From the NCBI GenBank assembly GCA_963809485.1, contig CAWEJX010000014.1, positions 1 to 64,000 of the forward strand: a DNA stretch of 64,000 nucleotides, written 5' to 3'. Source of the stretch: an uncultured Acidobacteriota bacterium (lineage in GTDB: Bacteria; Acidobacteriota; UBA6911). The notes below the pieces were generated by a model, which worked only from the letters and a program-made list of their open reading frames with translations, was not told where the DNA came from and made no database searches. The translations under genes and the position numbers were made by a program. Every line of letters starts with the position of its first letter. Position 1 is the stretch's first letter. Of this stretch, positions 19,137 through 56,059 are shown in pieces.

Positions 19137-19327
19137 GTCAGGTACCTCCGGCAAAGCCGGAGGCTTGAAAGATTTGAACCGCTCAAAGCGGTTGGAGGAG
19201 TTGCGCCGGTCTTGAACGCTGACTTACGCCGACCCTCGCCGAACAAATCGGCGTTTCTCAGCGTTTCCAAATACGGAGCTGTCAAACTCTTTGAGTCCCC
19301 CGGCAGAGCCGGGGCTTTACCAATGCA
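19137..19327 (-). mobile_element. Non-autonomous IS200/IS605-like palindromic element, copy A
   Basis: Left hairpin CCCCGGCTCTGCCGGGG and right hairpin CCTCCGGCTTTGCCGGAGG..TGAC on the minus strand; preceded by TGAT. Confidence 0.85.
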
Positions 19328-19328
19328 A

Positions 19329-20312
19329 TCATTTCAGCCCCAATTGCTGGATTTGTTTCCGGACGGCGGGCGCCTCTCCTGCGTCCGGGTGCAGATCCAG
19401 AAACTGCCGCAGCATGCGTGCCGCGGACGCAGAATCCTTTCTCGCGATGTAAATTTCGGCCAGCTTTAGTTGCGGGAAAGAAAAGTGCCCGGGATCCAAA
19501 ACAGTCGCCTGCTTCAGATACTTCTCGGCTTCCTCCATCTGTCCCATGTGATAGTAGTTCAGGCCCAGCTGCGAATGGGCCAGCGCGTCGTCGGGCCTTG
19601 CCTGTAAGGCAGCCAGGTTCCAGGGCAGCGAATCCTGTATCTTACCCTGCGTGAGCAAAGCGCCGCCCAAATTTACCAGCGACGGGTAATAGTCGGGCTC
19701 ATGCTTCAGCGCCTCCCGGAAATACGTTTCCGCGAGGGCAAATTGATGCAATTTATAGGCCAGGGCGCCGAGATTATTCCAGGCATCGACGTATTGGGGG
19801 GCGATTTCAACCGCCTTCTTCAGGTGTTCCACAGCCCCCTCGACATCGCGGTTTTGCATTTTCCTGTTCGCTTTTTCGTACTCCCGCAGGGCATTGTCGG
19901 GTATGGAAAGCTGGGACGAAGAGACTTTCTGATAGGATTTGCTCGCGAGACTGGGCTGGAAGGTAATTTCGACAAAAACGCGTTTCTTGGAATCCGCAAG
20001 CGCGGGACTCACCTCCACGGTGCGCGCATATTCGCCCGAGCGCGGGATATACACAATCAAAGTGAACAGGTCGGGATGCAGGTCTTTGAATTTGAATTTT
20101 CCCGACAAATCAGCCCGCGTTTGAGCGGCGAAGGGAATGTGCGTCCCATCCAAAAAAACCAGCGGACAGGTAGCCCGGGTAAACTTTTTGTCGGGCTGTG
20201 TGATTTTGCCGATCAGCTGGTAGCCGCCGGCGTCCGCTCCCCGCGCAAGAAAGGCGTTGAGCGCAAAAAGCAGAAACAGACTGCTTCGCATGATCCGTAC
20301 GTTGCCTTTCAC
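19329..20312 (-). CDS. Secreted TPR protein with N-terminal carboxypeptidase-regulatory-like domain
   Basis: Signal peptide, ADLSGKFKFKDL beta-domain, multiple TPRs (AWNNLG, SLVNLG, AHSQLG). Confidence 0.85.
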   Translation of the reverse strand: MKGNVRIMRSSLFLLFALNAFLARGADAGGYQLIGKITQPDKKFTRATCPLVFLDGTHIPFAAQTRADLSGKFKFKDLHPDLFTLIVYIPRSGEYARTVEVSPALADSKKRVFVEITFQPSLASKSYQKVSSSQLSIPDNALREYEKANRKMQNRDVEGAVEHLKKAVEIAPQYVDAWNNLGALAYKLHQFALAETYFREALKHEPDYYPSLVNLGGALLTQGKIQDSLPWNLAALQARPDDALAHSQLGLNYYHMGQMEEAEKYLKQATVLDPGHFSFPQLKLAEIYIARKDSASAARMLRQFLDLHPDAGEAPAVRKQIQQLGLK

Positions 20313-20330
20313 GCGATTTCCCCTATGCCG

Positions 20331-21581
20331 TCACTCCACAATGGCGTCAAGCGCCTGATGAAAATCATGCAGCAGGTCGCGCCAGTCCTCGATGCCGACG
20401 GAAATCCGGACTAGCGAGTCATCAACGCCGAGAGTTTTTTTGTCCGCGGCGCTCATCTCGGAATGGGTCGTGGTTGCCGGATGGCTTACCAGCGTTTCCA
20501 CGCCTCCGAGGCTCACGGCGTTCCGGCCTATTTGGAGGTTCCGGAGAAAATCGAATGCGGCGCGCTTTCCTCCCTTCAGCATTATGGAAAAAATGGCGCC
20601 CGGAAACTGGCATTGAACGTCGCGGATGCGGATCTGCTCGGGGTCGTCGAACAGCGTGGGGTAGTTAACTTTCGCGATTTTCTTGTGGTTCGCCAGGGTT
20701 TCGGCTATTCTCTGGGCATTCTTGCTCTGCCGGTTCATGCGCAAAGAAACGGTGGGCAGCCTTCCGTCGAGCAGCCAGCATTCGTCCGCCTGAAGAATGT
20801 TGCCGAGAACGCCCCTGATCCCGCGCAACTGCACGACAAGGTCGGTGTCGCGGGCCAGGATGATGCCTCCGAGCAGGTCGCTGAATCCCGAAAGGTATTT
20901 GGTTGCCGAATAGACAACCAGGTCGGCATCATGCATCAGAGGGTGCTGAAACACCGGTCCCATGAAGGTGTTGTCGACGGCAACCAGCGGCGCATCCGGG
21001 TGTTTTGCGGCATGCGCCGTGGCAGACCCTATGTCCGTCATTGTCAGCACCGGGTTCGCGGGTGTTTCGATGAATATCAGCCGAAGGTTGCTTGTGGATT
21101 CGATCGTCTTTTTGAGGCCTTCCGTGTCGCCCGCGTGAACAGGAATTCCGTGGATGCCCAGCGGATCCAGCAGATGATGGATGAGATGGTACGTCCCGCC
21201 ATAAAGAGGCGTCGTATAGATGAAGTTGCCGCCTTGAGGGCAGAAGGTAAAAAACAAAGTTGAAATTGCTGCCATGCCGGAATTGAAAACAGCCGCCGCG
21301 TGCGCCCCCGGTTCCAGCGGCACGACCTGATCTTCAAGAATCTCCGCGTTCGGGTGGGAGAGCCTGGCGTAGATCAGGTCGACGCTTTCCCCGGCTTTGG
21401 GCTGCGCCAGGCCCAGGGCAATCGCGAAAGACCGTTCGGCGGCTTCCGGTGAAGAGAAGACATAAGTGGAAGATCGGAAGACCGCCGGCCTTGCGGATCC
21501 TACCGACAGTTGCGGGTCGAATCCGCGTGTGAGTATGGCCGTGGGAGGACGCACAACATAAGGCGTTTTTTTGAGGTCCAT
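20331..21581 (-). CDS. PLP-dependent Cys/Met metabolism enzyme (methionine gamma-lyase / cystathionine gamma-synthase family)
   Basis: YARLSHPN, FNSGMAAI, ETPANP, VDNTF, YSATKYLSG, VSLGGVETL. Confidence 0.92.
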   Translation of the reverse strand: MDLKKTPYVVRPPTAILTRGFDPQLSVGSARPAVFRSSTYVFSSPEAAERSFAIALGLAQPKAGESVDLIYARLSHPNAEILEDQVVPLEPGAHAAAVFNSGMAAISTLFFTFCPQGGNFIYTTPLYGGTYHLIHHLLDPLGIHGIPVHAGDTEGLKKTIESTSNLRLIFIETPANPVLTMTDIGSATAHAAKHPDAPLVAVDNTFMGPVFQHPLMHDADLVVYSATKYLSGFSDLLGGIILARDTDLVVQLRGIRGVLGNILQADECWLLDGRLPTVSLRMNRQSKNAQRIAETLANHKKIAKVNYPTLFDDPEQIRIRDVQCQFPGAIFSIMLKGGKRAAFDFLRNLQIGRNAVSLGGVETLVSHPATTTHSEMSAADKKTLGVDDSLVRISVGIEDWRDLLHDFHQALDAIVE

Positions 21582-21709
21582 GTTTTCTCTCCAGTGCTTT
21601 TATGCGTTGAACGTCGAACGTTAACACGTTGCACGTTATAAGCTGCTCAACCTGCAATCCTGAAGCCTGCGAATTCGTAGGAGCTCGGAGCCTAGCAGGC
21701 TGCCATATT

Positions 21710-22165
21710 CTAGGTTCCCGACTCATCGAAACCGAAATAGCGCATCCAGTCCTCCACATCAACCTTTTCCTGGGAGGCACTGCGCGTGCTGCGCGCAGAG
21801 AGCCTGGATTTCATTTTGGCGGCGAATTGGCTCCAGATCATCGTGGACGCTCCGGCATTGCGGCAGCGGGCGGCCAGTTCGCGATCATTGGACACGACAA
21901 TGATTTCCGAAGGATACTGAACTTCCCGCAAGCGGCGCAGCATGATCTCGTCGGTCGAATAAGGGGCACTGTATCGGACGGAAATTCCCGGCGGCACCGC
22001 CGCGCGACCGGGATCGTCGCCGTCAAAATAAACCAGGAACCGGCCGCCTCCCGACCTGTAAAAGGAGCTCAAGGTCGACAAAAACGCCTGCCGGACCCGC
22101 GGATTTTCCCGCGCAGCCGCAGTGGACTGCCCGATCAGGTTGTTGCCGTCAAACCAGTAAGGCAT
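21710..22165 (-). CDS. NYN/PIN domain (YacP-like) protein
   Basis: DGNNLIG, VYFDG, TDE, VVSNDREL, C-terminal DVEDWMRYF. Confidence 0.85.
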   Translation of the reverse strand: MPYWFDGNNLIGQSTAAARENPRVRQAFLSTLSSFYRSGGGRFLVYFDGDDPGRAAVPPGISVRYSAPYSTDEIMLRRLREVQYPSEIIVVSNDRELAARCRNAGASTMIWSQFAAKMKSRLSARSTRSASQEKVDVEDWMRYFGFDESGT

Positions 22166-22248
22166 GCCTATAGTTTGCCACAAAACAGTTCACTGCGCCG
22201 CCGTTTTGATGGCGGCGTGTTGCGGGTGTTGCGCGCTCTGAAGCATGC

Positions 22249-22278
22249 TTGACAGCACAATCGGGCATTCACTATGCT
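22249..22278 (+). promoter_or_regulatory. Putative sigma70 promoter of prmA (leaderless)
   Basis: TTGACA-18 nt-TATGCT, followed 6 nt later by ATG at 22285. Confidence 0.6.
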
Positions 22279-22284
22279 CGCCGG

Positions 22285-23181
22285 ATGACTGAGAAACGCT
22301 TCATGGAAGTGGCTCTGAGGGCGGATGTGGATTCCGCCGAACTCCTTTCCCTGCTGCCGGAAGGGGAAGCACTCGGCAGCTGGGAAATGGACGGCATTAT
22401 TCATATTTACTGGAATGAGGAACAATGGCGGCCGGCCCTGTTGGAGGATTTGAAACGCGCCCTGGCCCGGCTCGGGATTGAGGACAGAGACGTCCGCCTG
22501 TCGGCAAATTCGGTGCCGGATGAGGACTGGAACGCAGCCTGGGTTGCCTCTCTGCAGCCGATCCGTATCGGGCGGCAAATAAGGATCCGTCAGAGCTGGC
22601 ATCCTGCCGACACTTCATTCAAAGGGATTGAATTGATCGTGGATCCCAAAAGGGCTTTCGGCAGCGGCTACCACGCGACTACGCAGCTGGTACTCGAATG
22701 GCTGGAGGAGAATATCAAGCCCGGCGACCGGGTTCTGGACATAGGAACGGGCAGTGGAATCCTGGCGATGACGGCCATCCGGCTGGGTGCTGCTTCGGCT
22801 CTGGGAATCGACAACGATCCTGTCGCACTCGAATGCGCGGGGGAGATGTCCGCGGCAAATGGTATCGGGCCCCAACTGGAATTGCGCGTCGCCTCCCTGG
22901 AAGACGCCGATTTCGGATTGTTCGACATAGTCGTGGCAAACCTTGACGGAAGAACATTGCCCCGGCTGTGCGGGTTGTTACCGGCTATGTTAAAAACGGG
23001 TGGGAAAGCCTGCCTTTCCGGTCTTCAGGAAGAAAACTACGAAGAAATCGCGGCTGCCGCGGCCAAAGCGGATCTTGCCGTCACGCTCCGGATGACGCGT
23101 GAAGACTGGCTTGCCCTGGAAGTGCGACCCGGGCAGGGGCTGCGCCCTCATCCAACTTTTGTGCAACGATCCTCATGTTGA
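22285..23181 (+). CDS. prmA: Ribosomal protein L11 methyltransferase
   Basis: DEDWNAAW, DPKRAFGSGYHATT, VLDIGTGSGILA, GIDND, VVANL, LSG. Confidence 0.92.
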   Translation: MTEKRFMEVALRADVDSAELLSLLPEGEALGSWEMDGIIHIYWNEEQWRPALLEDLKRALARLGIEDRDVRLSANSVPDEDWNAAWVASLQPIRIGRQIRIRQSWHPADTSFKGIELIVDPKRAFGSGYHATTQLVLEWLEENIKPGDRVLDIGTGSGILAMTAIRLGAASALGIDNDPVALECAGEMSAANGIGPQLELRVASLEDADFGLFDIVVANLDGRTLPRLCGLLPAMLKTGGKACLSGLQEENYEEIAAAAAKADLAVTLRMTREDWLALEVRPGQGLRPHPTFVQRSSC

Positions 23182-23274
23182 TTTGATGTCAGCGTTCTTC
23201 AGCGCTTTTGTCGGCGTATATCAGCGTTATTAGCACGAGTCCGCGGCAAGGCAACAGGATTCCTGATGCCCTAA

Positions 23275-25425
23275 TCAGCTTTTTTGTGCCTTGCTGATTC
23301 TCTCCGGAGTCATAGGCATTTGAAACAGCCTTACGCCGGCGAGATCAAAAATCGCGTTGGCGATAGCCCCGCCCACAGGGGCGATCGCAGGCTCGCCCCC
23401 GCCTTGCGCCGTCAGTTGATCATTCCGGACCAGGAAGGCATCGATGTCGGGAAGCCACGAGAAGCGGGGGATGGAATAGTTGTGGAAGTTGCTCGTGAAT
23501 ATGCGTCCGCCTTTGAAATCGATATCTTCGGAAAGGCTGTAGCCCAGACCCATCATGATGCATCCTTCCATCTGCATTCTGGCTCCTTCCGGATTGATGA
23601 CGACGCCCATGTCCTGAACGGCCACGATGCGCTGAACCTTAACCTTGCCCCTGTCCATTTTGACTTCAGCGATTTCGGCCACGTAGGCCCCGGCGTCTAT
23701 GGCGCAGGCAATTCCAATCCCGCGTCCACTGGGCCCCGGGGATGCTTTGTAGCCGAAACGTTCCGCGGCGGTTTCCAATACGCGGCGCATCCGGGCATCC
23801 GACGTGTTTCTCAGGCGAAATTCCAGAGGATCGGCTTTCGCGTGCGCGGCCATGGTGTCGATGTGGGATTCCCTGGCAAAGACATTGATGTTCGATCCGG
23901 GAGCGCGCCAGGCGCCAATGTAAAATGGATGCGCCTTGGTTGTATCCCCCATCCAGCCGCCGTAGGTGCTCATGAGGTTGTTGGGGACATCATAAAACTG
24001 CTCGGCGCTTCTGGAGCCGGCATAGTAGACATGGTAGTCCCACAGGCAGATTTTACCCGCGCCGTCCAGGCCCGATTTGATCCGGACGATGGCCGCCGGC
24101 CGGAAGTGGTCGTAGAAAAATTCCTCCGCCCGGCTGTAGGATACCTGAACCGGCTTTCCGGTGGCCCTGGCCAGGCGCGCCGCGTCCAGGGCTTGAAGCG
24201 CCGCGCTTTTGCCCCCGAATCCGCCGCCCACGAACGGAGTGATTACCCTGACGTTCTGAGGAGCAAGTTTTAGGGCTCGCGCAATTTCCTGCTGATTGGG
24301 AAAAGGGGTCTGAGTTGAAATCCAGACCGTCATTTTTTCGCCCTCAAGTCTGGCGCAGGCGGTATGGGTTTCTATGGATGCGTGGGCGCCGTATCCATTG
24401 AGATATTTGGCTTCAAAAATCGCGGCCGACGCCTTTTCCCCCTCGGCGAGGTCTCCCTTGCTCTCCTGCGTTCGGGGTTTGGGCGCCGCCTGAAGGATGC
24501 GGTCGAAAATGGTTTCGGGATCGACCGATGATTGGGGCGTGTCAAAATCGGCCTTAACGGAGGCGAGGGCTTTCTCCGCTGTTTCCGGATCTTCGTGAAG
24601 GACGGCGATCAATCCCTCCTCCTTCACCACGACTACGCCCGGCATTTGTTCGGCGGCGGATGTGTCGACGCTTTTCGCGGATGCACCGTGTGCCGGCGGG
24701 CGCAAAATCTTCGCGTATAGCAGGCCTGGAAAACGCAGATCCCCTGTGAACTGGGCGGCGCCGGTCACCTTCGCTTTGCCATCCAGGCGGGCGGGCGATT
24801 GGCCGATTACGGCAAAATCCGCCGGCTGCCTGATCTCGGCCTTCTGTTCCAGTTTGCGGATTATTCTCTGGCCCTTGGCCAGTTGGGCGTAAGAAAGCTT
24901 CCTGTTATTATCGGATCTCACATAGATGACGCCGTTATCGGCGGCCAGATCCGATTTGGGGATCCCCAGCTGTTCGGAAGCCAGTTGCAGCAGCACCGCC
25001 TTTGCTTCGGCTGCGGCCGATCGGAGGGCTGCCCCATAGACGCGGACCGACATGGATCCAAAGGTCCCCATATCCCATGGGCACAAATCGGTATCTCCCA
25101 TAATCATGCGGATGGATTCCAAAGCAATCCCGAGTTCTTCCGCGGCCATCTGGGCGAGTGCCGTCGTATTGCTTTGACCCATCTCGATCTTTCCCGAAAA
25201 CACAGTAACTTCACCGTCTTCGCCGATTCTCAGGTAGGCATTGAAATCGGTCGCCGCACCCGGCCCCATCTTGGGAGGGCCTTGCGCCGCCGGCGTTTCC
25301 AAAACTGCAGGGAAAAAAACGATGATTCCTCCGCCGAGGAGCGTGAGGAAATCGCGCCTTCCATAAAGGGTGGCCGCCGAATTTGCGGCGGTTTTTGAAA
25401 TGTCGTCTTGCATGGGGCATCTCAT
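23275..25425 (-). CDS. Xanthine dehydrogenase family molybdopterin-binding subunit (isoquinoline 1-oxidoreductase beta-like), Tat-exported
   Basis: RRDFL Tat motif, KIEMGQ, GTFGSMS, GGGFGGK, WRAPG, GGGEP. Confidence 0.92.
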   Translation of the reverse strand: MRCPMQDDISKTAANSAATLYGRRDFLTLLGGGIIVFFPAVLETPAAQGPPKMGPGAATDFNAYLRIGEDGEVTVFSGKIEMGQSNTTALAQMAAEELGIALESIRMIMGDTDLCPWDMGTFGSMSVRVYGAALRSAAAEAKAVLLQLASEQLGIPKSDLAADNGVIYVRSDNNRKLSYAQLAKGQRIIRKLEQKAEIRQPADFAVIGQSPARLDGKAKVTGAAQFTGDLRFPGLLYAKILRPPAHGASAKSVDTSAAEQMPGVVVVKEEGLIAVLHEDPETAEKALASVKADFDTPQSSVDPETIFDRILQAAPKPRTQESKGDLAEGEKASAAIFEAKYLNGYGAHASIETHTACARLEGEKMTVWISTQTPFPNQQEIARALKLAPQNVRVITPFVGGGFGGKSAALQALDAARLARATGKPVQVSYSRAEEFFYDHFRPAAIVRIKSGLDGAGKICLWDYHVYYAGSRSAEQFYDVPNNLMSTYGGWMGDTTKAHPFYIGAWRAPGSNINVFARESHIDTMAAHAKADPLEFRLRNTSDARMRRVLETAAERFGYKASPGPSGRGIGIACAIDAGAYVAEIAEVKMDRGKVKVQRIVAVQDMGVVINPEGARMQMEGCIMMGLGYSLSEDIDFKGGRIFTSNFHNYSIPRFSWLPDIDAFLVRNDQLTAQGGGEPAIAPVGGAIANAIFDLAGVRLFQMPMTPERISKAQKS

Positions 25426-25886
25426 TTGTGAGCCGAGACACTCTCGATTGCCTGGACAATTCTCTTATGAGCGCCGCAGCGGCAGAGATTATGCTCCATG
25501 CCTTCAAGGATGCGGGCGCGCGTGAGTTTGGGATCCTTCAGCAGCAGCGCATAGGCGTTCATTATCATGCCGGGCGTGCAGAAGCCGCATTGGACGGCGC
25601 CATGGTCGATAAAAGCCTTCTGCAGCGGATGAAGCTTGTCGCCTTTTGCCAGTCCTTCGATCGTTGCAACCGATTTGCCGTTAACATCCCTGATCGGCAC
25701 CGAGCAGGAACGCCTGGCCTCTTTGTCGATGACCACCGTGCACGCTCCGCAAAGACCTGTACCGCAGCCGTATTTCGTGCCGGTCAGCCCCAAATCCGTT
25801 CGCAGAACCCAAAGCAGTTTCCTGTCGGGCTCAACATTCAGTGTCACAGGTTTTCCGTTCAGCCCAAAACTGATGGTTTCTTCCAT
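25422..25886 (-). CDS. (2Fe-2S)-binding subunit (isoquinoline 1-oxidoreductase alpha-like)
   Basis: GTKYGCGTGLCGACTV, QCGFCTPG, NLCRCG. Confidence 0.95.
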   Translation of the reverse strand: MEETISFGLNGKPVTLNVEPDRKLLWVLRTDLGLTGTKYGCGTGLCGACTVVIDKEARRSCSVPIRDVNGKSVATIEGLAKGDKLHPLQKAFIDHGAVQCGFCTPGMIMNAYALLLKDPKLTRARILEGMEHNLCRCGAHKRIVQAIESVSAHK

Positions 25887-26449
25887 AGTCTTTCTCGCCC
25901 TGAGCCGGTTGGATTACGTGTTGATTGTATCAGACTGCGGATATTTTTCAGCGGATTATGGCGTTGCGGCATTTTTTGCGCGGGAGGGAGAGCCGGCGGT
26001 TGACGAACCATCGAGCCTGGAGCAGAGTCTGACGATGTGCTGACAGGAGCGCCGCAAAATATGGATGGCGCGCGTCTGGGAACCAGATGCCCGCTTGCCA
26101 AAGGTTGATGAAAGCAGAAATGCCAGGACAAGGCAGGTTAGCAATTCTCGACTCCCCGGTCCTGGGTGGACAATCCATATTTCGGATTCCTATTCCGAGT
26201 TCCGGATTCTGAATTGTCCACCCCTAGGAACGACATTACGGTACTCTTCCTTTTTATCAACATCATTAGACCATCGAGAATCCCTTCTGGATACTGGCAG
26301 AAATACCTGTTTCGGGAGGAGTAGTAATACCCAAGGCATGATCAGGGAAGTGCGCGCTGTCTGTTTTTCTGCAGCATCAGGGGCAGAAAGCCGATGAACG
26401 GGCCTGTTGTCCGGGAATCCGCATCACGCGCGCAACAAGCCCCAAAAAG

Positions 26450-26478
26450 GAAAAGGAGGCGATGGAAGCCTCCTTTTT
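26450..26478. terminator. Intrinsic terminator downstream of tRNA-Asp
   Basis: AAAAGGAGGC-GATGGAA-GCCTCCTTTTT hairpin with T-runs on both strands. Confidence 0.7.
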
Positions 26479-26512
26479 GTTTCCCGAAATTTTTGACTGC
26501 CTTTGGGTTGAA

Positions 26513-26589
<77 letters not shown>

Positions 26590-31969: not shown

Positions 31970-32103
31970 ATCAGCCGTTGAACCATCTCTTTCCGCAGCA
32001 TGCGAGCTGCAGCATTCCAATCCTTACGTTTAAGCTGAATTTCATGCAAGATCCTCTTATTGATTGGGTGCCCCGCCGGCTCTTTCGGTGATTCGGTGTC
32101 CGT

Positions 32104-32144
32104 GAATATCGAATGTCGAATTTCGAATATCGAACCGCAGAAGT
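32104..32144. repeat. GAATnTC heptamer tandem repeat plus GAACCGCAGAA
   Basis: GAATATC GAATGTC GAATTTC GAATATC GAACCGCAGAAGT. Confidence 0.85.
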
Positions 32145-32175
32145 TTGGCCGGACTTTGAAATCTATTATTCTAAT

Positions 32176-32445
32176 TACATTGGTAAAGCCCCGGCTCTGC
32201 CGGGGGACTCAAAGAGTTTGACAGTTCCGTATTTTGAAACGCTGAGAAACGCTGATAAAAGCGCTGACAAACGCCGATTTGTTCGGCGAGGGTCGGCAAG
32301 CAAAAGCCGATGAGGCGATCCGCGCTGGCCCCTTGCGGGGATCGGAAGCGCCTCATCGGCTTTTGCCCGCGTAAGTCAGCGTTCAAGACCGGCGTAACTT
32401 CTGCAACCGCTTTGAGCGGTTCAAATCTTTCAAGCCGGCTTTGCC
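32176..32445 (+). mobile_element. Non-autonomous IS200/IS605-like element, copy B (nested 18-bp inverted repeat insert, damaged right end)
   Basis: TAAT|TACATTGGTAAAGCCCCGGCTCTGCCGGGGGACTC... ; right hairpin reduced to CAAGCCGGCTTTGCC. Confidence 0.85.
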
Positions 32446-37700: not shown

Positions 37701-37774
37701 AATATTGAAAGTAATACATTAGCTATTTGAACGCGGCGGGAATGGCTTGACGCACGATATTTTTAGGACATAAT

Positions 37775-38009
37775 TACATCGGTAAAGCCCGGCTCTGCCG
37801 GGGGACTCAAAGAGTTTGACAGCTCCGTATTTTGAAACGCTGACGTACGCTGACATGACGCTGACGTACGCTGAAAAAATATATAAATTTTTGTCGGCGT
37901 GGGTCGGCGTTCGTTCAGCGTGCGTCAGCGTTCAAGACCGGCGTAACTCCTCCAACCGCTTTGAGCGGTTCAAATCTTTCAGCCTCCGGTTTTGCCGAAG
38001 GTGCCTGAC
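37775..38009 (+). mobile_element. Non-autonomous IS200/IS605-like element, copy C
   Basis: TAAT target, both terminal hairpins, ends CCTGAC. Confidence 0.87.
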
Positions 38010-43592: not shown

Positions 43593-43709
43593 GATGCATG
43601 CCTCCGAGGGATGTTTATGGATGCTCGTGAAGACTGTTCGATACATAAATGGCGTGTGTAAATTCGAGCCTCTATGAGCCCGCGGGCCTATCCCGCCGAT
43701 AGCCAAAAT

Positions 43710-43925
43710 TACATTGGTAAACCCGCGGCTCTGCCGGGGGACTCAAAGAGTTTGACAGCTCCGTATTTTGAAACGCTGACGTACGCTGAAAAAATATATA
43801 AATTTTTGTCGGCGTGCGTCGGCGTTCGTTCAGCGTGCGTCAGCGTTCAAGACCGGCGTAACTAGTCCAACCGCTTTGAGCGGTTCAAATCTTTCAAGCC
43901 TCCGGCTTTGCCGGAGGTACCTGAC
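43710..43925 (+). mobile_element. Non-autonomous IS200/IS605-like element, copy D
   Basis: Both hairpins; CAAGCCTCCGGCTTTGCCGGAGGTACCTGAC end; preceded by AAAT. Confidence 0.87.
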
Positions 43926-46019: not shown

Positions 46020-46058
46020 GGTCAGCTATTGTAATGCCAATCTTCACCATTTGATTTG

Positions 46059-47687: not shown

Positions 47688-47845
47688 GCGCCCTCCCGCC
47701 GCGACAGTATACAAGATAGCCGTCGGATCCTCCGCAGGTTATTGAGGCTGTTATTGCGCGTGACCGGGGAATTCGCCCGGTCCGGATGCCGGAAGCAGGA
47801 AGCCAGTGGATGCATTCCGTCACGGCCGGCACCCTGATGCCTAAT

Positions 47846-48069
47846 TCTATTGGTAAACTCCCGGTTTTGCCGGGGGACTCATAGAGTTTGACAGCTCCGT
47901 ATTTTGAAACGCTGAGATACGCTGACCAAAGCGCTGACAAACGCCGATCTGTTCGGCGAGGGTCAGGCTTTTGCCCGCGTAAGTCAGCGTTCAAGATTGG
48001 CGTAACTCCTCCAACCGCGTTGAGCGGTTCCAATCTTTCAAGCCTCCGGCTTTGCCGGAGGTGCCTGAC
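47846..48069 (+). mobile_element. Non-autonomous IS200/IS605-like element, copy E
   Basis: TAAT target, both hairpins, ends CCTGAC. Confidence 0.87.
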
Positions 48070-48070
48070 T

Positions 48071-48098
48071 CGTCAATCGTCAATCGTCATTCGTCAAT
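48071..48098. repeat. CGTCAAT heptamer tandem repeat
   Basis: CGTCAAT CGTCAAT CGTCATT CGTCAAT between element E and the carB stop. Confidence 0.85.
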
Positions 48099-51000
48099 TA
48101 CTTTATTCCCGCATGGTACTTCTGCAGGGAAACGACTTCAGGTTCCTTTTGCCGGTAAGCCGCGATGCCTTTGGCTGCGGCTCGGGCGGCGGCCATAGTT
48201 GTGACGTAGGTGATCTTGTGTTTAATCGCTGTTTTGCGGATATAGGAATCGTCAGTAAGTGCCGCGCTTGCCGATCGGCGTGTTGATGACCAGATCGATC
48301 TCGCCGTTTTTGATGGCATCCACGATATTGGGCCGGCCGGCGTGCATCTTTAAAATCTTGTCGCATTCCACCCCGTTGGCGGACAGGAAATTGTTGCGTG
48401 CCTTCCGTCGCTCGGAGCTTGAAGCCCAGCCGCGCGAATTCGCGGGCGACCTCCAGCGCTTCCTTTTTGTCGGGATCCGTGACCGAAATCAGCACGGCGC
48501 CCTGCTGGGGCAGAAGCTGCTGGGCCGCTTCCTGAGCTTTGTGAAACGCCAGTTCGAAGGAATCGGCCATGCCCAGGACTTCTCCCGTGGAGCGCATTTC
48601 GGGTCCGAGGATCGGATCGACTTCATGGAACATGTTGAATGGGAAAACCGCTTCTTTGACTCCGTAGTGCGGGATGGTTTTTTTGCGTGAGGTTCAGGTC
48701 GGCCATTTTTTTGCCCAGCATCAGCTGGGTGGCCAGACGAACCATCTGGATGTTGCAGACCTTGGATACCAGCGGAACCGTGCGCGAAGCTCGAGGATTG
48801 GCTTCGAGGATGTAGACCTTGTCGTCGGCAATCGCGTATTGAATGTTGATCAGGCCCAGGACCTTGAGCTCGATGGCAATCCTGCTGCGTGTATTCTTCA
48901 ATGGTCTTCCGGTGCTTTTCGGGAATGCTGACGGGCGGCAGAACGCAGGCCGAATCTCCGGAATGAATGCCGGCAAGTTCGATATGTTCCATGATGGCAG
49001 GAATGAAAGCGTCGCTGCCGTCGGAAATCGCATCCGCCTCGACTTCGAGCGCATTTTCCAGAAACTTGTCGATCAGGATGGGCAGTTCCGGCCAGATTTC
49101 AACCGCGCTCGAAACATAAAGGGTTAGGTCCTCTTCGTCGTGGACGACCTCCATCCCTCGGCCGCCCAGTACATAAGAAGGCCGGACCATCAGCGGATAG
49201 CCTATTCTTTCGGCGATTGCGATCGCTTCATCCAGATTGTGCGCCATGCCGGATGCGGGCTGGGGGATTTCCAGTTTCTTCATCATGATGCGAAACCGGT
49301 CCCGGTCTTCGGCAAGATCGATGGTGTCGGGCGAGGTGCCCAGGATCTTGACTCCGGCCCTTTCCAGTTCGCGGCAGATGTTGAGCGGCGTCTGCCCGCC
49401 AAACTGCACGATGACACCCTCGGGCTTTTCCTTTTGATAGATGCTTAAAACGTCTTCCACGGTCAGGGGCTCGAAATAAAGCTTGTCGGAAGTATCGTAG
49501 TCGGTTGAGACGGTCTCGGGATTGCAGTTGACCATGATGGTTTCATATCCAAGGTCGCGCAGGGCAAAAGCCGCATGGACACAACAGTAGTCGAACTCGA
49601 TCCCCTGACCGATGCGGTTGGGACCGCCTCCCAGGACCATCACCTTTTTGCGGCCGCTGACCTGGACCTTGTCGGGAGCATTGTAGGTGGAATAGTAGTA
49701 AGCGGCATTTTCCACGCCGGAAACCGGAACCGGTTCCCAGGTTTCGGTGATCCCAAGTCTGGTTCTCTGGTTGCGGATTTTTTCTTCGGCTATTCCCAGC
49801 AGCTTTGCCAGGTAGCCATCCGCAAATCCGTCCTTCTTCGCTTTCGTCAACAGGTCGTCCGGAAGCAGGCGGCCCTTGTAGGTCAATATTTTTTCTTCCA
49901 GATCCACCAGTTCCTTCATCTGTTCGATGAACCAGGGCTTGATATGCGTTCTTTCGTAAAGCTCCTGGATACTCGCACCCTTGCGCAGCGCTTCATACAT
50001 GATAAAAATCCGTTCGCTGGTAGGATACCAGAGCATCCCCATCAGGTCGGCAAGCGACTTTTTATAAAAGTCCTTGGCAAATCCCAGGCCTAGACCGCCC
50101 GATCTCCAGGGAGCGGATCGATTTCTGGAAAGCTTCTTTATAGGTCTTTCCAATGCTCATGACTTCGCCCACGGCGCGCATTTGGGTCCCCAGCCGGTCT
50201 TCGGCGCCTTTGAACTTTTCAAAGGCCCAGCGGGCGAACTTGATGACAACATAATCTCCCCAGGGCGTGTATTTCTCGAGAGTCCCTTCGCGCCAATAGG
50301 GAATTTCGTCTAGCGTCAGACCGCCGGCGAGCAGGGAAGAGACGAATGCGATGGGAAATCCCGTCGCCTTGGATGCCAGCGCGGAGGAGCGCGAGGTCCG
50401 GGGGTTGATTTCAATGACCACAACGCGTCCCGTTTTGGGGTCATGGGCAAACTGGATATTGGTTCCGCCGATCACGCCAATGGCGTCCACGATATCGTAG
50501 GAATATTCCTGGAGCCTCTCCTGCAGCTTTCTGTCTATGGTCAGCATGGGCGCCGAGCAGAAGGAATCGCCGGTGTGAACGCCCATGGCATCGATGTTCT
50601 CGATGAAGCAGACCGTAATCTTCTGCCCCTTGGCGTCGCGGACGACCTCGAGTTCCAGTTCCTCCCAACCTTCCACGGATTCCTCGATGAGAACCTGCCC
50701 GACCAGGCTCGCGGCGAGCCCGCGGCTGACCACTGTCCGGAATTCCTCGAGGTTGTAAACCAGGCCTCCGCCTGTTCCGCCCAGCGTGTAGGCGGGGCGG
50801 ATAACACAGGGGAGGTCGATTTTCTGCAGAACGCCTTCAGCTTCTTCAAGGCTCAACGCAATTTCGCTGCGAGGCATTTCGATGCCCAGCTGCATCATTG
50901 TTTCCTTAAAGGCCTGCCTGTCTTCGCCCCGCTCGATGGCGTCCTCTTTAACACCGATTATCTGGACGCCGTATTTGTCCAGGATGCCCTCTTTGGCAAG

Positions 51001-51303
51001 CTGCGAGGAAAGGTTCAGCCCTGTCTGTCCGCCCAGGTTGGGAAGCAGGGCATCGGGCCGTTCCTTGGCGATCACTTTTTCCAGCGATTTCACATTCAGC
51101 GGTTCTATGTAGGTGGCGTCCGCCATGCCGGGATCGGTCATGATAGTGGCCGGATTTGAGTTGACGAGCACGATCTTGTAACCGAGCTTTCGCAGCGCCT
51201 TGCAGGCCTGTGTGCCCGAATAGTCAAATTCGCATGCCTGCCCGATAATGATGGGCCCCGATCCTATGATCAAAACTTTGTTTATATCATTGCGCTTGGG
51301 CAC
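48098..51303 (-). pseudogene. carB: Carbamoyl-phosphate synthase large subunit, split by five +1 frameshifts (pseudogene or assembly error)
   Basis: MPKRNDI..GSGPIIIGQACEFDYSG, GGGPNRIGQGIEFDY, MRSTGEV and the MGS domain are spread over consecutive frames. Confidence 0.92.
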
Positions 51304-51341
51304 TAAAACCTCCTGTTAAACTTCCGAGCTGTCCCTTCCCT

Positions 51342-52172
51342 CTATTTGCTGTCCGACGATTTTCGTTTACTGAAATAATCGCCTATTGCCAGAACAAGTG
51401 ATGCCACCGTATTTTGATCGGGCACGATCTCGGCTTGTTTGCCGAATTGCGCCACTGTGCTGCCGGTGACCGGACCGAGAACTGCCACTGTGGAGTCCCG
51501 AAGTATCCTTTTTCCGTCCTCCGGCCCGAGGATATCCATCAAATTCCTTATGCCTGAGGAGCTGGTGAAAACTGCCAGGTCCACCTTACTGCTGCGTGCC
51601 TGCCGGAGGATCCCTTCGTCCGGTTTGGCCCGGACGGTCTCATAGCATGGGATGACATCCACCCGTGCACCCGCCGCGGAAAGCGCAGCCGGCAAGACGT
51701 CCCGTCCTTCCTTTGCGCGCGGCAACAGGATCCGGCAGCCGGACAGGTGTTCGAGCCCTCCATAAAACCTGTCCAAGGACTCGATGACGCCTTCCGCGAC
51801 GAAGTTTTCCGGGATCAATGCGACTTCCAGACCATATTCACGCAGAGCACTCGCCGTCGCGGGTCCCACGGCACAAATCTTCGGCATATCCGGAGAACCC
51901 GTGCGGGCCCCGCGCTTTTCCCAGCGCCGCATAAAAAAACTCACTCCGTAGGAGCTGGTGAAGATGATCCAGGTGTATTTCTCCAGAGAGTTTAGGGCTT
52001 CGTCCAGCTTCCGTTTATCGGGCATTTCCTGAGCCTCGATCAAAGGAAGAGCCAGGACTTTTCCGCCCATTGCCTCCAGGCCGGAAGCCAATTCAACCAT
52101 TTTTTTAGCGCTGCAAGCTACAAGAATCGTCAAATTCCTGAGCGGTTCCGAGGCTGCGGGGCCGGTGGACAT
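51342..52172 (-). CDS. hemD: Uroporphyrinogen-III synthase
   Basis: WIIFTS, AVGPATA, LLPRA..GR, YET, FTSSS; downstream of hemC. Confidence 0.9.
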   Translation of the reverse strand: MSTGPAASEPLRNLTILVACSAKKMVELASGLEAMGGKVLALPLIEAQEMPDKRKLDEALNSLEKYTWIIFTSSYGVSFFMRRWEKRGARTGSPDMPKICAVGPATASALREYGLEVALIPENFVAEGVIESLDRFYGGLEHLSGCRILLPRAKEGRDVLPAALSAAGARVDVIPCYETVRAKPDEGILRQARSSKVDLAVFTSSSGIRNLMDILGPEDGKRILRDSTVAVLGPVTGSTVAQFGKQAEIVPDQNTVASLVLAIGDYFSKRKSSDSK

Positions 52173-52528
52173 ATCATGGCCTCCGATATAGCCGGCGGCG
52201 GGCTCTGAACCCTCGGCGCCTCATGGAGTGTATTCCGGCAAATATCTCTGATCCGGTGGGGATCCATCGGCTCTGCCGGTGAGGCAGTACGAGTCTGATA
52301 AATCCCGGAGCATGCCTTTTCACCGGTGTTTTGACGGAAACCAGGAACATAAGCACCCTTAAATGCTGAATGAATGTCGAAATTCGACATTCTGGGATCG
52401 ATATTCTGCGGTTCAAAAAGGTTTCATGATATCCATGGCGTATCGGACTTCCGCTATATTTCATCGGTCGCGATCCAGCCCTTTAAGGGTCCGGCAGCCA
52501 TTAAGCTTCCGGCTCCGCCCGAGGCCCC

Positions 52529-53440
52529 CTATTCCAAGCTCCTGAGAATATCCCGGCCTCCCCTGGCGAGTATTTCATCGGCGAGATGCAGGGCCGTTTC
52601 GACGGCTGTTTCGCAATTGCCGCGCCGAACGCTTCGCAACACCCTGCTGCCGTCGGGCGAGGCTACCAGCCCATCCATTTCCACAAAGCCGCCTTCCACG
52701 CGCGCATATGCAGCCACCGGGACATTGCATCCCCCGCCCATGCGCTGGAGAAAGGCCCGCTCAGCGGTAACTGCCTGGAATGCAGGCGGGTGGTTCAGGG
52801 CCGCCGCGATGTCGTCCAGCCGAGCGTCATCGTCCCGCGCTTCGACGGCAAGCGCACCCTGACCGGGAGCCGGAAGCATTTCGTTTGTGCTGAATTTTGC
52901 CGCAATCCTGTCTCCCAATCCGAGCCGGTTCAATCCCGCACAGGCCAGAACAATCGCGTCGTAGGCGGCTTCCTGCAATTTTCTCAGACGGGTTTCGATA
53001 TTGCCGCGAATGTCCAGAACCTTCAGGTCGGGGCGCAGAGCGAGGATTTGTGCCTGCCTGCGTATGCTGCCGGTGCCGATACGCGCGCCTGCCGGGAGCT
53101 GAAAAAGGCCGCCGGCGCTACCCGTAATCAAGGCGTCCTGCACCTCTTCGCGCTCCGGTATTGCGGCGATCCGGAGGCCATCGGGGATGCTCGTGGGCAG
53201 GTCCTTCATGCTGTGAACGGCAAGGTCGATTTCTTTTTGCAGCAGCGCCTGCTCGAGTTCTTTGACAAACACGCCCACTGCTGCGCCGGAGCGTATGGAA
53301 GAGGTTGTGTCCTTGTCGGCGGATGTCCGTATTACGTGCACCGAGACCTCGACAGCGGGGAAACGAGCGATAATTTTCTCTCGGACCCAGTTCGTCTGTG
53401 CCAGAGCCAGTGCGCTTCCTCGGCTGCCTATGATCAACAT
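52529..53440 (-). CDS. hemC: Hydroxymethylbilane synthase
   Basis: GSRGSALALAQ, FVKELE, AVHSMKD, RGNIETRL, PAPGQGAL, GGCNVP. Confidence 0.96.
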   Translation of the reverse strand: MLIIGSRGSALALAQTNWVREKIIARFPAVEVSVHVIRTSADKDTTSSIRSGAAVGVFVKELEQALLQKEIDLAVHSMKDLPTSIPDGLRIAAIPEREEVQDALITGSAGGLFQLPAGARIGTGSIRRQAQILALRPDLKVLDIRGNIETRLRKLQEAAYDAIVLACAGLNRLGLGDRIAAKFSTNEMLPAPGQGALAVEARDDDARLDDIAAALNHPPAFQAVTAERAFLQRMGGGCNVPVAAYARVEGGFVEMDGLVASPDGSRVLRSVRRGNCETAVETALHLADEILARGGRDILRSLE

Positions 53441-53609
53441 AAATCCTCGCACTATTATTTCGCAGGCAGCAGGTTACGATGCAGCCTGCAACCCGAAGTT
53501 ATCCTTGACAGTCCGCGCCATATCGCTGCGCTTAGGTGTGAGAACCGCGGGCAAACGCGCCGGGATATCCGTGCGGCTGGCGGCGCCTTTCAGCAGAAAG
53601 CGGAAGGCC

Positions 53610-54887
53610 CTAATCCGTGTTCTGCTTGGTTTTAAAAATCCGTTGGATCATTTCCATGTAGGCTGTTTCGTCCATGGAATCCCTGCTGTTTCGCAATTGC
53701 ATGATTAGGGGATGGGCAATTTTCCCCGCAATGCGCGAAATCATCGACTCGAGTTCCTGGATCTGCCGGGGATCCTGGGGACCGATTTTATTAAGACTGC
53801 GTTGGAGTTCCGTTCGGCAGATCTCATCTATCCGGCTTTGAACCTGCATGACGACGGGCGCAACGTCAAAGGATTTCAGCTTTGTGCAGAAAACTTGCAC
53901 TTCCTGGTCCACGATTTTTTCGGCCGCCGCGGCCGCTTTGATGCGCTCATTGAGATTGGCCTCGACCACTGCCTGAAGATCGTCGATATCATAATAAAAT
54001 ACGTTGTCGATATCCCCCACCCGGGGATCGACATTCCGGGGGACCGATATGTCGATGAAGACCGCCGGCGCGCTTTTGCGCTCGTGCATGATGCGCTGAA
54101 CCATTGGGGGATCGATGATTATGTCCGGCGCTCCCGTGGACGTAATGATGACATCGGCGCGGGATGCCCATTCGGGCAATTCGTCGAAAGGCACTGCCAT
54201 GGCGTGGAAGCGCGCTGCGAGATCTCGGGCGGTTTCCGGGCTGCGGTTGGCAAGGTAAATGCTTTTGGCTCCGGTCTCAGCCAGATACCGGATTGCGGCT
54301 TCGCCCATTTTTCCTGCGCCGACAACCAGTATGCTTTTCTTCTGCGGGTCTCCGAATATTTTCCGAACCAGTTCCACGGCGGCCGAACCGACCGAAACCG
54401 AATATTCCCCGATGCTGGTTTCGGAACGTACACGCTTTGCCGTGCGAAAGGCAGCCTGAAGAAGGCTGTTGAGGTAGCTTCCGACGGTTCCGGCCGCAAC
54501 GGCCGCGCTGTAGCAGGACTTGACCTGACCGAGTATCTGAGGTTCGCCCAGGATCATCGAATCGAGGCTACTGGCGACCCGGAACAGATGGCGGATTGCC
54601 TGATCATCGGTGAAGCGATACAGCCTGGGGCTGAGGAGGGGAAGTGAAATTCCGCTGTACTCCGACAAAAAAGCCTCGATCGATTCGCTTCCGGAGGGCA
54701 GGGGATCGGCATTGGAGAGGATTTCCACCCGGTTGCAGGTTGAAACTATTATTGCTTCGAGGATTCCCGGCCGGTCGGAAAGCCTTTTGAGGCCTTCAGG
54801 CAATTGATCCGCGTTAAAGGAAGCCCGCTGCCGGATATCCAGTTTTGCAGAACGATGATTCAAGCCAACAAGCAGGAGGTTCGACAT
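53610..54887 (-). CDS. hemA: Glutamyl-tRNA reductase
   Basis: GLNH, STCNRVE, SLDSMILGEPQILGQVK, GAGKM, DISVPRN. Confidence 0.96.
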   Translation of the reverse strand: MSNLLLVGLNHRSAKLDIRQRASFNADQLPEGLKRLSDRPGILEAIIVSTCNRVEILSNADPLPSGSESIEAFLSEYSGISLPLLSPRLYRFTDDQAIRHLFRVASSLDSMILGEPQILGQVKSCYSAAVAAGTVGSYLNSLLQAAFRTAKRVRSETSIGEYSVSVGSAAVELVRKIFGDPQKKSILVVGAGKMGEAAIRYLAETGAKSIYLANRSPETARDLAARFHAMAVPFDELPEWASRADVIITSTGAPDIIIDPPMVQRIMHERKSAPAVFIDISVPRNVDPRVGDIDNVFYYDIDDLQAVVEANLNERIKAAAAAEKIVDQEVQVFCTKLKSFDVAPVVMQVQSRIDEICRTELQRSLNKIGPQDPRQIQELESMISRIAGKIAHPLIMQLRNSRDSMDETAYMEMIQRIFKTKQNTD

Positions 54888-54971
54888 CTACAACCTATCA
54901 GGGACTGCATCCCCATTGGCGCAAAACAGGGATGCGAGGCTGCGGCCTCGTAGCCGCGCCGCGTCCGATTC

Positions 54972-55772
54972 CTATAAATATTTATGGAGCCCCCAATTGA
55001 CCCCGAAGGTAAACAATGTGGCGGCAAATCCAATAATGCTGATGTATGCAGCCCGCCTGCCGCGCCATCGGGCCGAAAATCGGCAGTTGATCAAAAACAG
55101 ATAAATCCCCCACGTGATCAGGGCCGCGGTTTCCTTGGGATCCCAGCCCCAAAAGCGGCCCCATTCCTGCTGCGCCCAAACGGCTCCCGAGATGATGGCC
55201 AGCGTCATGGCTATGAAGCCGACAAAAAGCGAGCGTTGGAACAGCTCATCGCATACCTGAAGCGAGGGCAGCCGGAAATATAGGAACCGGAACTTTTTTT
55301 GCTTCAGTTCCTTTTCCTGAATCAGGTAGAGGATGCCCGATATAAATGTAAGAAAGAACGCAGCATAGGAGAGAAAAGCCATGCTCCCATGGAAATAGAC
55401 CCACCCGCTTGCCAGCCCGGGAGGGATGGCGCGGTTTTCCTCCCAAAAAACCTGGAAAAAGATCATGAGCAGCGAAACGAGGGGAAGTATAAATGCACCC
55501 AGCGCGTTCAGTTTGTAGCGGAAATCGGCGGCAATGAAAGTCAGCGAGATGCACCAGGCAAGAAAGCAGAGGGATTCCGGAAGGTTGGTGATGGGGAAGT
55601 GCCAGCGCGCGATGCCGAGCAGGACCAGAAATAAGGTATGAAAGGCAAAGCCGAAGGCAACCATGCCCAGGGCTATTTTTACAAATATTTGCCGCTTTTG
55701 ATAAAATCCGAAAATTGAGTGCAGCAGGCCCAGCGCATAAAGGGCCATCGCAATCGATAGAATCCAACCCAT
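54972..55772 (-). CDS. ccsA: Cytochrome c biogenesis protein CcsA / HemX-like
   Basis: WWD domain SGAVWAQQEWGRFWGWDPKET, conserved His, TM helices; upstream of hemA. Confidence 0.88.
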   Translation of the reverse strand: MGWILSIAMALYALGLLHSIFGFYQKRQIFVKIALGMVAFGFAFHTLFLVLLGIARWHFPITNLPESLCFLAWCISLTFIAADFRYKLNALGAFILPLVSLLMIFFQVFWEENRAIPPGLASGWVYFHGSMAFLSYAAFFLTFISGILYLIQEKELKQKKFRFLYFRLPSLQVCDELFQRSLFVGFIAMTLAIISGAVWAQQEWGRFWGWDPKETAALITWGIYLFLINCRFSARWRGRRAAYISIIGFAATLFTFGVNWGLHKYL

Positions 55773-55880
55773 TTGGTTCGCCCAAGAATTTAAAATTCTA
55801 GCATTTGGGCAAAAGCAGTGGCAAGGCAAATGGCGGAATTGCTGTCGGCGACCGGGGAACGCCGATGAAGACCGACAATC

Positions 55881-56059
55881 AGGCTTGAAAGATTGGAACC
55901 ACTCAAAGCGGTTGGAGGAGTTCCGTTGGTTTTGCCCGCCGACCTTCGTCGAACAAATCGGCGTTTGTCAGCGCTTTTGTCAGCGTATCTCAGCGTTTTA
56001 AAAAATGGAGCTGTCAGACTCTATGAGTCCCCCGGCAGAGCCGGCGGTTTACCAATAGA
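55881..56059 (-). mobile_element. Non-autonomous IS200/IS605-like element, copy F (right hairpin lost)
   Basis: TGAT|TCTATTGGTAAACCGCCGGCTCTGCCGGGGGACTC on the minus strand; stops at CAAGCCT. Confidence 0.8.

Follow-up and report, generated by a model that had tools for sequence, protein, structure and literature searches.

The nearest described relatives of the repeats treated here are the palindrome-associated transposable elements (PATEs) of Haloquadratum walsbyi. PATEs are described as gene-less elements that lack terminal inverted repeats and whose palindromes near the termini share homology with those of IS200/IS605-type transposons (PMC3119063). They also have a target of 4-5 nt at the 5′ end, strain-specific insertions, and internal deletions that give size classes (PMC3119063). 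Repeats of much the same kind are found in a bacterium, as follows. The window, that is, the whole 64,000-nucleotide stretch of DNA analysed, is segment 1-64000 of contig C14 of the draft genome of an uncultured Acidobacteriota bacterium, called G000 (C1, C5, C6, C7, C8, C9, C15, C18, C20 and C21 are other contigs of G000). It contains six copies, A to F, of a palindromic repeat. We propose, with a probability of about 0.9, that these repeats are PATEs: non-autonomous derivatives of the IS200 group of the IS200/IS605 family, in which a strongly palindromic core without coding capacity stands in place of tnpA. They belong to an already known kind of bacterial mobile DNA. A literature search, with most subscription journals and ISfinder outside its scope, returned no description of the family or of PATEs in Acidobacteria.

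A second comparison is with two insertion sequences (ISs), IS608 of Helicobacter pylori and ISDra2 of Deinococcus radiodurans (PMC3201880, PMC5934647, PMC5027513). These have subterminal hairpins on one active strand and guide tetramers 5′ of the hairpins, and they insert 3′ of the target without duplicating it. In IS608, pairing between guide and cleavage tetramer is crosswise at the first two positions (PMC3201880, PMC5934647): on the left, A+16 pairs with T-3 and A+17 with T-4; on the right, G-35 pairs with C-3 and A-34 with T-4. The repeats share these features and the pairing register. The tetramers themselves differ, being AAAG/TTAC and GAAT/TCAA in IS608 and TAAA/TAAT and CAAG/TGAC here, as do the distances from cut to hairpin foot, which are 12 nt here against 19 nt in IS608 on the left and 8 nt against 10 nt on the right. 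Unlike IS608 and ISDra2, the repeats contain neither tnpA nor tnpB, and a T follows both cut sites. They differ from the H. walsbyi PATEs in that the host is a bacterium, the parent would be a tnpA-only IS of the IS200 group rather than of IS605/IS1341 type, no TnpB gene was found in G000, the repeats form one homogeneous family of at least 254 copies, and a second family of palindromic repeats makes up the core. At the level of sequence, the repeats have all the features by which Haloquadratum PATEs and IS608-type ends are recognised. The one thing not found is an intact cognate transposase gene in G000 and, because the assembly is 95.67% complete, its absence is not proven.

G000 is a 6,035,645-base draft in 21 contigs. 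A search with the six copies gave 3186 BLAST matches, which merge into 462 places, a number that includes fragments and separate ACGCTGA palindromes (see below). The resemblance of the copies is far above chance; with copy D as query, E-values go down to 2e-111 and 2e-95. For the census, a 70-nt left end and an 80-nt right end were used as BLAST queries against G000. Of the 308 left-end and 286 right-end matches, 254 of each pair up into elements, while 54 left ends and 32 right ends stand alone. The family has at least 254 complete elements, and these total 76,221 bp, or 1.26% of G000. From about one copy per 10 kb in the window, the first-pass annotation, made before any search, had predicted a large genome-wide family. 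The family is real, though its density across the genome is ~1 per 24 kb, the window being about twice as dense. According to a crude gene caller based on open reading frames (ORFs), 241 of the 254 elements lie outside predicted ORFs.

Two main size classes are seen, of ~200-260 nt and ~400 nt; in all, 142 elements are 170-269 nt long, nine are 280-319 nt, and 103 are 360-405 nt. The 402-nt form has an extra long central hairpin, which the shorter forms lack in whole or in part. The predicted single-stranded DNA fold of a 402-nt copy has an energy of -134 kcal/mol (z = -13.9 against shuffled sequences) and shows the two subterminal hairpins together with a long stem in the centre. The central loop of the long form is found in two orientations, 72 'F' and 31 'R' among the 103 long copies. 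A rolling-hairpin 'flip-flop' of this loop was considered and rejected, since the loop orientation tracks subfamily markers: positions 6-7 read AC in 54 of the 72 'F' copies and CT or CC in 25 of the 31 'R' copies. Because orientation follows the markers, the two forms mostly reflect one old inversion rather than ongoing flipping.

The element boundaries were read from an end profile of the 179 of 254 elements in which both termini are fully aligned. On the left, conservation sets in abruptly at T (91%) A (86%) A (98%) T (98%). On the right, it stops at CCTGAC plus T (80%), with random composition outside. The left tetramer is TAAT in 133 elements, TGAT in 21 (154 of 179 for the two together), CAAT in 10, AAAT in three, and something else in 12. 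In 161 of the 179 elements the final four bases are TGAC, and in 144 of the 179 the element is followed by T. Neither terminus is an inverted copy of the other; the two ends carry different subterminal hairpins on one strand.

Exact empty sites confirm the boundaries. A sister species in the same genus, G006, has a contig (C77) that is syntenic with window 32.5-49.9 kb at 86-90% identity and is without copies C and D. At the copy C site the alignment blocks abut, with one shared T, and the empty site reads GGGACATAAT joined to TTCTATTT (also given as GGGACATAAT joined to TTCTATTTTG). At the copy D site it reads CCAAAAT joined to TCCGCTGAGCG. Copies C and D are also missing from environmental contigs ~94-96% identical to the window. 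These come from three (X1, X2, X4) of four public soil/wetland runs, of which contigs, not raw reads, were compared. In X2 and X4, position 37774 is joined to 38010, so that 235 nt are skipped, with one ambiguous letter; in X1 and X2, position 43710 is joined to 43955, with 28 diverged letters between. Because of the exact empty sites for copies C and D, the boundaries are settled: insertion takes place 3′ of T(A/G)AT, TGAC forms the end of the element, no target duplication is made, and a T follows both cut sites. The first-pass annotation had seen neither terminal inverted repeats nor target duplications, and it had suggested looking in relatives for empty sites; profile and empty sites agree with its boundaries, that is, TAAT before a T at the left and TGAC before a T at the right.

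Other sites are less simple. Copy B coincides with a contig break in G006, and a G006-specific copy lies near window 46049; neither for this copy nor for copy E is there a clean alignment between G000 and G006. At C9:112.1 kb, a full copy stands after TAAT within an older left-end fragment, the continuation of which is strongly diverged. A candidate nested insertion at C20:1084.6 kb turned out to be two neighbouring elements.

The second line of evidence is the pairing of guide and cleavage tetramers. In the register applied, the first guide base pairs with the second cleavage base, the second guide base with the first cleavage base, and the fourth with the fourth. The last of these pairs is our own reading of AAAG/TTAC and GAAT/TCAA rather than a statement of the sources, and the A expected at the third cleavage position is likewise suggested by these sequences together with the described T-4/A-2 contact. 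With this register, TAAA predicts TAAT and CAAG predicts TGAC, and both match what is observed. The TGAT variant has a G:T wobble with the TAAA guide. The rule was then followed through related lineages, with the guide defined as the 4 nt before the fixed 8-nt hairpin arm and with distinct ends counted. Among 108 distinct left ends, 100 have the predicted tetramer upstream of the guide. Broken down by guide, the score is 88/94 for TAAA (predicting TAAT), 3/3 for AGGT (CTAA), 1/1 each for AGAC (CTAG) and AAAC (TTAG), and 0/2 for two others; for AGTC (CTAG) it is 7/7, in a lineage whose seven loci share their sequence exactly from CTAG onward. On the right, the predicted tetramer lies just past the hairpin in 52 of 69 distinct ends: 20/24 for AAAG (TTAC), 19/20 for CAAG (TGAC), 9/9 for TAAG (TAAC), 2/2 for CATG (TGAC), 1/1 each for AATG (TTAC) and TAGG (TAAC), 0/8 for a GAGT group, and 0/4 for four singletons. 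When guides were swapped between lineages as a control, matches fell to 27/640 on the left and 3/631 on the right. The compensatory changes of guide and cleavage tetramers across related lineages argue for the pairing rule. The suggestion of the first-pass annotation that TAAA:TAAT and CAAG:TGAC obey the IS608 rule is borne out by the fit and by this covariation.

An IS with the same ends and an intact transposase gene is present in G128, a genome of the same family as G000 and of another genus. It is 629 nt long and is found in three 100% identical copies (loci L037, L170 and L171), with the preceding flanks AATAAT, CATAAT and CTTGAT. Its left hairpin, CCCCCGGC-TCT-GCCGGGGG, its right hairpin, CCTCCGGC-TTT-GCCGGAGG, and both of its guides are identical to those of the repeats. 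It has the same TAAT or TGAT flank and the same TGAC-plus-T end, its right terminus reading CACTGAC followed by T, and it shares the conserved blocks ACTCA.AGAGTTTGACA and AACCGCTTTGAGCGGTTC. The 143-aa product matches the IS200/IS605 family transposase model NF033573 of NCBIfam at 139.6 bits (cut-off 55). The difference is in the middle: the IS has an intact 143-codon tnpA where the repeats have the ACGCTGA-repeat palindrome, with or without the further long hairpin. Decayed versions were found elsewhere. In G030, of another family within the class, an internally deleted tnpA lies between homologous left and right ends; in G002, a tnpA without its N-terminus does so; and in G007, a tnpA with an in-frame TGA lies between a left end of 90% identity and a right end that is damaged.

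The relatives reach well beyond these genomes. Of 41 genomes searched, only G000 and G006 have the full element, and 14 more have right-end-like matches. Among 137 genomes of the class, 35 contain relatives of TnpA at E <= 1e-20. An exact 30-nt word of the left end is found in at least 103 stretches of the genome collection, in records of Proteobacteria, Thermodesulfobacteriota, Synergistaceae, Verrucomicrobia, Terriglobia and others. Eighty of these loci were fetched and classed. Fourteen have tnpA and a right end 628-659 nt from the left end, one has a tnpA fragment only, and seven have a right end 299-432 nt away without tnpA, being other gene-less derivatives. The remaining 58 have neither tnpA nor right end, and 31 of these 58 are cut by a contig end within 260 nt.

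Another gene-less element, of ~290 nt, was noticed at loci L106, L140, L084, L069, L097 and L096 (Competibacter, Contendobacter, Gammaproteobacteria and Verrucomicrobia records). Its left end is like that of the repeats (TAAT, TACATTGGGTAAA, identical hairpin), with an AAAG/TTAC right end. The core has stayed well conserved between distant phyla, and the element may represent a second PATE family of wide distribution. At the left end of the related element in L106 (875-926, minus strand), Rfam gives a match to STnc490 of 22.3 bits, below the gathering score of 56. STnc490 is an Hfq-binding RNA associated with IS200 in Salmonella, and the match probably reflects no more than the homology of IS200 left ends.

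The orientation of the elements is strongly biased by contig, with 3 plus and 58 minus on C20, 1 and 19 on C1, and 15 and 0 on C6. In the 15 contigs with a clear sign of GC skew (C7, C8 and C18 left out), the top strand of the element is on the G-rich strand for 171 of 190 elements. The sole dnaA match in G000 is at C7:454,563-455,039, and orientation flips there: to the left are 12 minus and 2 plus elements, to the right 10 plus and 2 minus (Fisher p = 0.0011). The top strand of the element is on the lagging-strand template. This is the placement of the active strand in IS608 and ISDra2, and the same bias is reported for other IS200/IS605 members as well (PMC5027513). Gene direction does not explain the bias. 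On C20, the predicted genes are balanced (568 plus, 553 minus), whereas the elements are 3 to 58; and the upstream and downstream genes, relative to the element, are same/same in 55 cases, opposite/opposite in 86, same/opposite in 63 and opposite/same in 50. It is the direction of replication that is followed. The TAA or TGA of the target is the stop codon of the co-oriented upstream ORF in 21 of 118 cases, copy A among them. Unlike the rest of the genome, C8 at 0-200 kb shows mixed element orientation; the replication terminus may lie here, or the segment may have been rearranged.

On the model of IS608 and ISDra2, the repeats would move as follows. A dimer of a Y1 (HUH) TnpA, supplied in trans, would bind the hairpins of the element. 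The guides TAAA on the left and CAAG on the right would pair with T(A/G)AT in the flank and TGAC at the element's tip, and this pairing would set the cuts between TAAT and T and between TGAC and T. The element would leave as a single-stranded circle, with precise resealing of the donor, and the circle would then integrate 3′ of another TAAT or TGAT on single-stranded DNA, without target duplication. The idea of the first-pass annotation that the repeats are derivatives of the PATE or miniature inverted-repeat transposable element (MITE) kind, mobilised in trans by a Y1 TnpA, is supported by the empty sites, the G128 IS, the pairing and the orientation; the mobilisation itself would follow the IS608 precedent.

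Several points weigh against this reading, the first being the transposase. A Y1 enzyme with these ends, which the first-pass annotation had asked for, exists in related genomes (intact in G128, partly decayed in G007, G002 and G030), but an autonomous parent in the repeats' own genome did not materialise. The assembly of G000, 95.67% complete and with 7.32% contamination, contains no intact cognate tnpA, nor does G006, the only other genome with the full element; and the G128-type 629-nt IS was not found in G000. The four Y1 matches (PF01797) of G000 are not flanked by family ends: no family end is within 6 kb of three of them, and the sole nearby full left end is 3.2 kb from the fourth, a pseudogene on C6. 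A tblastn search with the cognate TnpA gave no match inside any element, and none of 34 candidates in G000 matched the TnpB zinc ribbon (PF07282). Since the 600 nt next to each contig end of G000 are free of family ends, an autonomous copy hidden at an assembly break is not indicated. The pseudogene, C6:298514-298933 (L001), is the closest Y1 gene in G000 and is ~52% identical to the G128 TnpA. It is IS200-like, with an in-frame TAG at the Tyr codon of its relatives and with its right end lost. Its left end is related to that of the repeats but distinct (TAAT, TCGCATTAGGGTAAA, hairpin CCGCCGCC-TCT-GGCGGCG). The other adverse points are these: the predicted tetramer is missing from 8 of the 108 left and 17 of the 69 right ends, though the GAGT group, eight of the right-end exceptions, may be a register error of extraction; GC skew is only 1-3%, a weak proxy for replication direction, and orientation on C8 is mixed; and the enzymology is taken over from IS608 and ISDra2, with a putative source for the transposase.

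A copy of the C6-type IS is also found in G006 (C43, L018), with a 2-nt deletion and a damaged right hairpin. The guides of this sister IS are as in the repeats (TAAA/TAAT, CAAG/TGAC), and its hairpin stems are different. The sister IS has been inactivated independently in G000 and G006.

The missing gene suggests the thought that the repeats are relics of extinct PATEs, the cognate transposase having been lost from the lineage and the copies only decaying. We consider this unlikely, though several observations fit it. Neither G000 nor G006 has an intact cognate tnpA; a weak remnant of a tnpA N-terminus is seen at C20:806287-806367, 70 nt beyond an element (13 of 27 residues identical, E = 0.57, one stop); median identity to the nearest neighbour is only 95.4% (249 elements); and, in the window, copies B and F are truncated and copies C and D have mismatches in their hairpins. 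Yet eight elements have a neighbour at >=99% identity, and several 402-nt copies differ from one another by 2 mismatches in 381 nt (~99.5% identical) within unrelated flanks. The sole 100% pair is C21:178586-178965 and C7:2370-2749, at the end of C21 and the start of C7; here the right flank is identical too, and the two contigs probably overlap, so that the pair would be an assembly overlap. In addition, the absence of C and D from contigs ~94-96% identical speaks of gain or precise loss since a recent split, and a draft of this completeness may miss a single IS copy. Because there are near-identical copies in unrelated flanks, and because copies are present or absent between close relatives, the family has been active recently, after the divergence of G000 and G006. 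A different arrangement can be imagined, in which the orphan family still moves, mobilised by a non-cognate resident Y1 enzyme, such as the intact single-copy gene at C15:225.6 kb or the long-form gene on C20 (1133 kb), and in which the ACGCTGA palindrome is a functional cargo, e.g., a protein-binding array, spread around the chromosome. This we hold to be improbable.

The first-pass annotation had also raised the possibility that the repeats are domesticated, like REP (repetitive extragenic palindromic) elements, or are structured RNAs, and neither idea found support. REPs, together with bacterial interspersed mosaic elements (BIMEs) and REPINs, are high-copy intergenic palindromes tied to Y1 HUH enzymes, the REP-associated tyrosine transposases (RAYTs, or TnpA-REP), and the REPs are described as units of 20-40 nt that bracket a single-copy domesticated gene (PMC3333891, PMC8266576, PMC3116915). 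That the repeats are host-domesticated palindromes of this sort, spread by a single-copy RAYT-type enzyme and serving host functions, would suit their hundreds of copies and their location between genes (241 of 254 outside ORFs), and C15 does have an intact Y1 gene, in single copy, between inverted hairpins of its own. The hairpins of this gene are, however, unrelated to the repeat ends, and the gene product falls below the cut-off of the REP model. Moreover, in contrast to REPs, the repeats are 200-400 nt long, with distinct left and right ends, a defined target tetramer, and ends homologous to those of a multicopy IS; they come and go cleanly between close relatives; and their presence in two of 41 genomes fits poorly with long-term vertical maintenance. 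Family repeats flanking a conserved single-copy Y1 gene in inverted orientation were not seen, nor were repeats persisting at orthologous sites across the genus. We therefore regard the REP explanation as very improbable. Slightly fainter still is the chance that the repeats encode structured non-coding RNAs or act as cis-regulatory elements in RNA. The very strong predicted structure (z = -13.9) invites this idea, as does a TTGACA hexamer in the left end, conserved in all the related IS lineages. Against this, orientation ignores the neighbouring genes (55/86/63/50) and tracks replication, and copies are present or absent between close relatives without other change. The Rfam search suggested at the outset matched the repeats to no family: the window gives two tRNAs only, and the 402-nt copy, the free palindromes and the related IS loci give only sub-threshold hairpin matches, those on the palindromes being to microRNA models. 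Finally, in size range and copy number the repeats are like classical MITEs, which are moved by a DDE transposase and have terminal inverted repeats and target duplications. This identity has next to no probability, given that the termini are not inverted copies; the empty sites, which have no duplication (a T ambiguity of at most 1 nt), rule it out. The PATE reading is the one we retain.

The C15 gene deserves a description of its own. It lies at C15:225621-225986 (L002 1405-1857, minus strand) and is an intact Y1 gene of 150 aa, with hairpins CCCGTCGCG.GAGCGACGG beside TTGAATTG and a duplicated upstream block. The layout is REP/RAYT-like, although the protein scores as IS200-type: 77.9 bits with the IS200-type model, and 21.6 bits with the REP-associated transposase model, for which the cut-off is 80.

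The six window copies are set out in Table 1. They were confirmed at the positions and strands at which the first-pass annotation had placed them, and an alignment upheld the architecture and upstream tetramers it had read, TAAT for B, C and E, TGAT for A and F, and AAAT for D. Mean column identity is 65%, with long invariant blocks at both ends and a variable core between. The alignment adds that two copies are truncated at the right end. In copy B, part of the right hairpin and the TACCTGAC tail, with its TGAC, are gone; copy F stops before the right hairpin, right after CAAGCCT. The target TGAT of copy A holds the TGA stop of an upstream ORF of 327 codons (19329..20312, minus strand).

Table 1. 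Positions of the repeat copies, of the parts of copy D, and of nearby tandem repeats in the window.
Feature	Position	Strand	Remarks
Copy A	19137..19327	-	Complete short element, 191 nt; target TGAT 19328-19331
Copy B	32176..32445	+	Intermediate form; target TAAT 32172-32175; part of the long inner hairpin kept
Copy C	37775..38009	+	Target TAAT 37771-37774; exact empty site in G006 and in contigs of two environmental runs
Copy D	43710..43925	+	Core type as copy C; target AAAT 43706-43709; empty site in G006 and in two environmental runs
Copy D, left guide tetramer TAAA	43718..43721	+	Directly 5′ of the left hairpin; predicted to pair with T(A/G)AT
Copy D, left subterminal hairpin	43722..43740	+	8-bp stem, loop TCT, one mismatch in copy D
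Copy D, right guide tetramer CAAG	43895..43898	+	Directly 5′ of the right hairpin
Copy D, right subterminal hairpin	43899..43917	+	CCTCCGGC-TTT-GCCGGAGG
Copy D, right cleavage tetramer TGAC	43922..43925	+	Final four bases of the element; 4 nt past the hairpin foot
Copy E	47846..48069	+	Complete short element, main core type; target TAAT 47842-47845
Copy F	55881..56059	-	Left end and core; target TGAT 56060-56063
Heptamer-type repeats	48070-48100
Heptamer-type repeats	32103-32142 with 62474-62513
Heptamer-type repeats	52377-52440 with 62405-62468

Tandem repeats of a heptamer type (TCGTCAA/T units, GAATNTCGAA units) adjoin copies E and B and occur as inverted pairs elsewhere in the window (Table 1). 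They are also seen beside elements on other contigs of G000.

In the core of the element, ACGCTGA units follow one another at a spacing of 10-11 nt and form a palindrome. Copies C and D have the whole of it, 4 + 4 units flanking an AT-rich loop (window 37836-37934 in copy C); in the main core type, the centre is replaced by further hairpins. The palindrome, of ~93 nt, is also found free of element ends, in at least 45 copies, as four ACGC(T/C)GA units, an AT-rich centre and four inverted units. G000 has 97 ACGCTGA arrays, of which 55 are palindromic and 45 are outside paired elements, the latter concentrated at C7:700-790 kb, at C8:600-673 kb and on C5. Among 30 genomes of the genus, the ~93-nt palindrome is found only in G000 and G006. 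It resembles an array of phased protein-binding sites. A seventh match in the window, at 23189-23228, represents half of an ACGCTGA array rather than another copy of the element. At C8:640023-640715, five half-palindromes of the ACGCTGA family stand head to tail with a period of ~154 nt.

The repeats belong to an ordinary class of mobile DNA, of which they are an unusually clean and large example, with at least 254 copies and exact boundaries. The missing transposase beside young copies is a puzzle already noted for Haloquadratum: one H. walsbyi strain has strain-specific PATE insertions though all of its IS200-type tnpA genes are pseudogenes (PMC3119063), and the two systems share the problem of insertions without an intact tnpA. 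The family and its relatives offer a natural decay series, from intact IS through versions with truncated tnpA to the gene-less element. They also offer natural covariation, which shows the IS608 rule to hold throughout a clade of IS200-group elements, with five left and at least three right combinations of guide and cleavage tetramers. For annotation, the family accounts for ~1.3% of G000, for many intergenic hairpins, and for probable assembly breaks in relatives. Lastly, the 30-nt left-end word, in at least 103 stretches from many phyla, flags a cosmopolitan IS.

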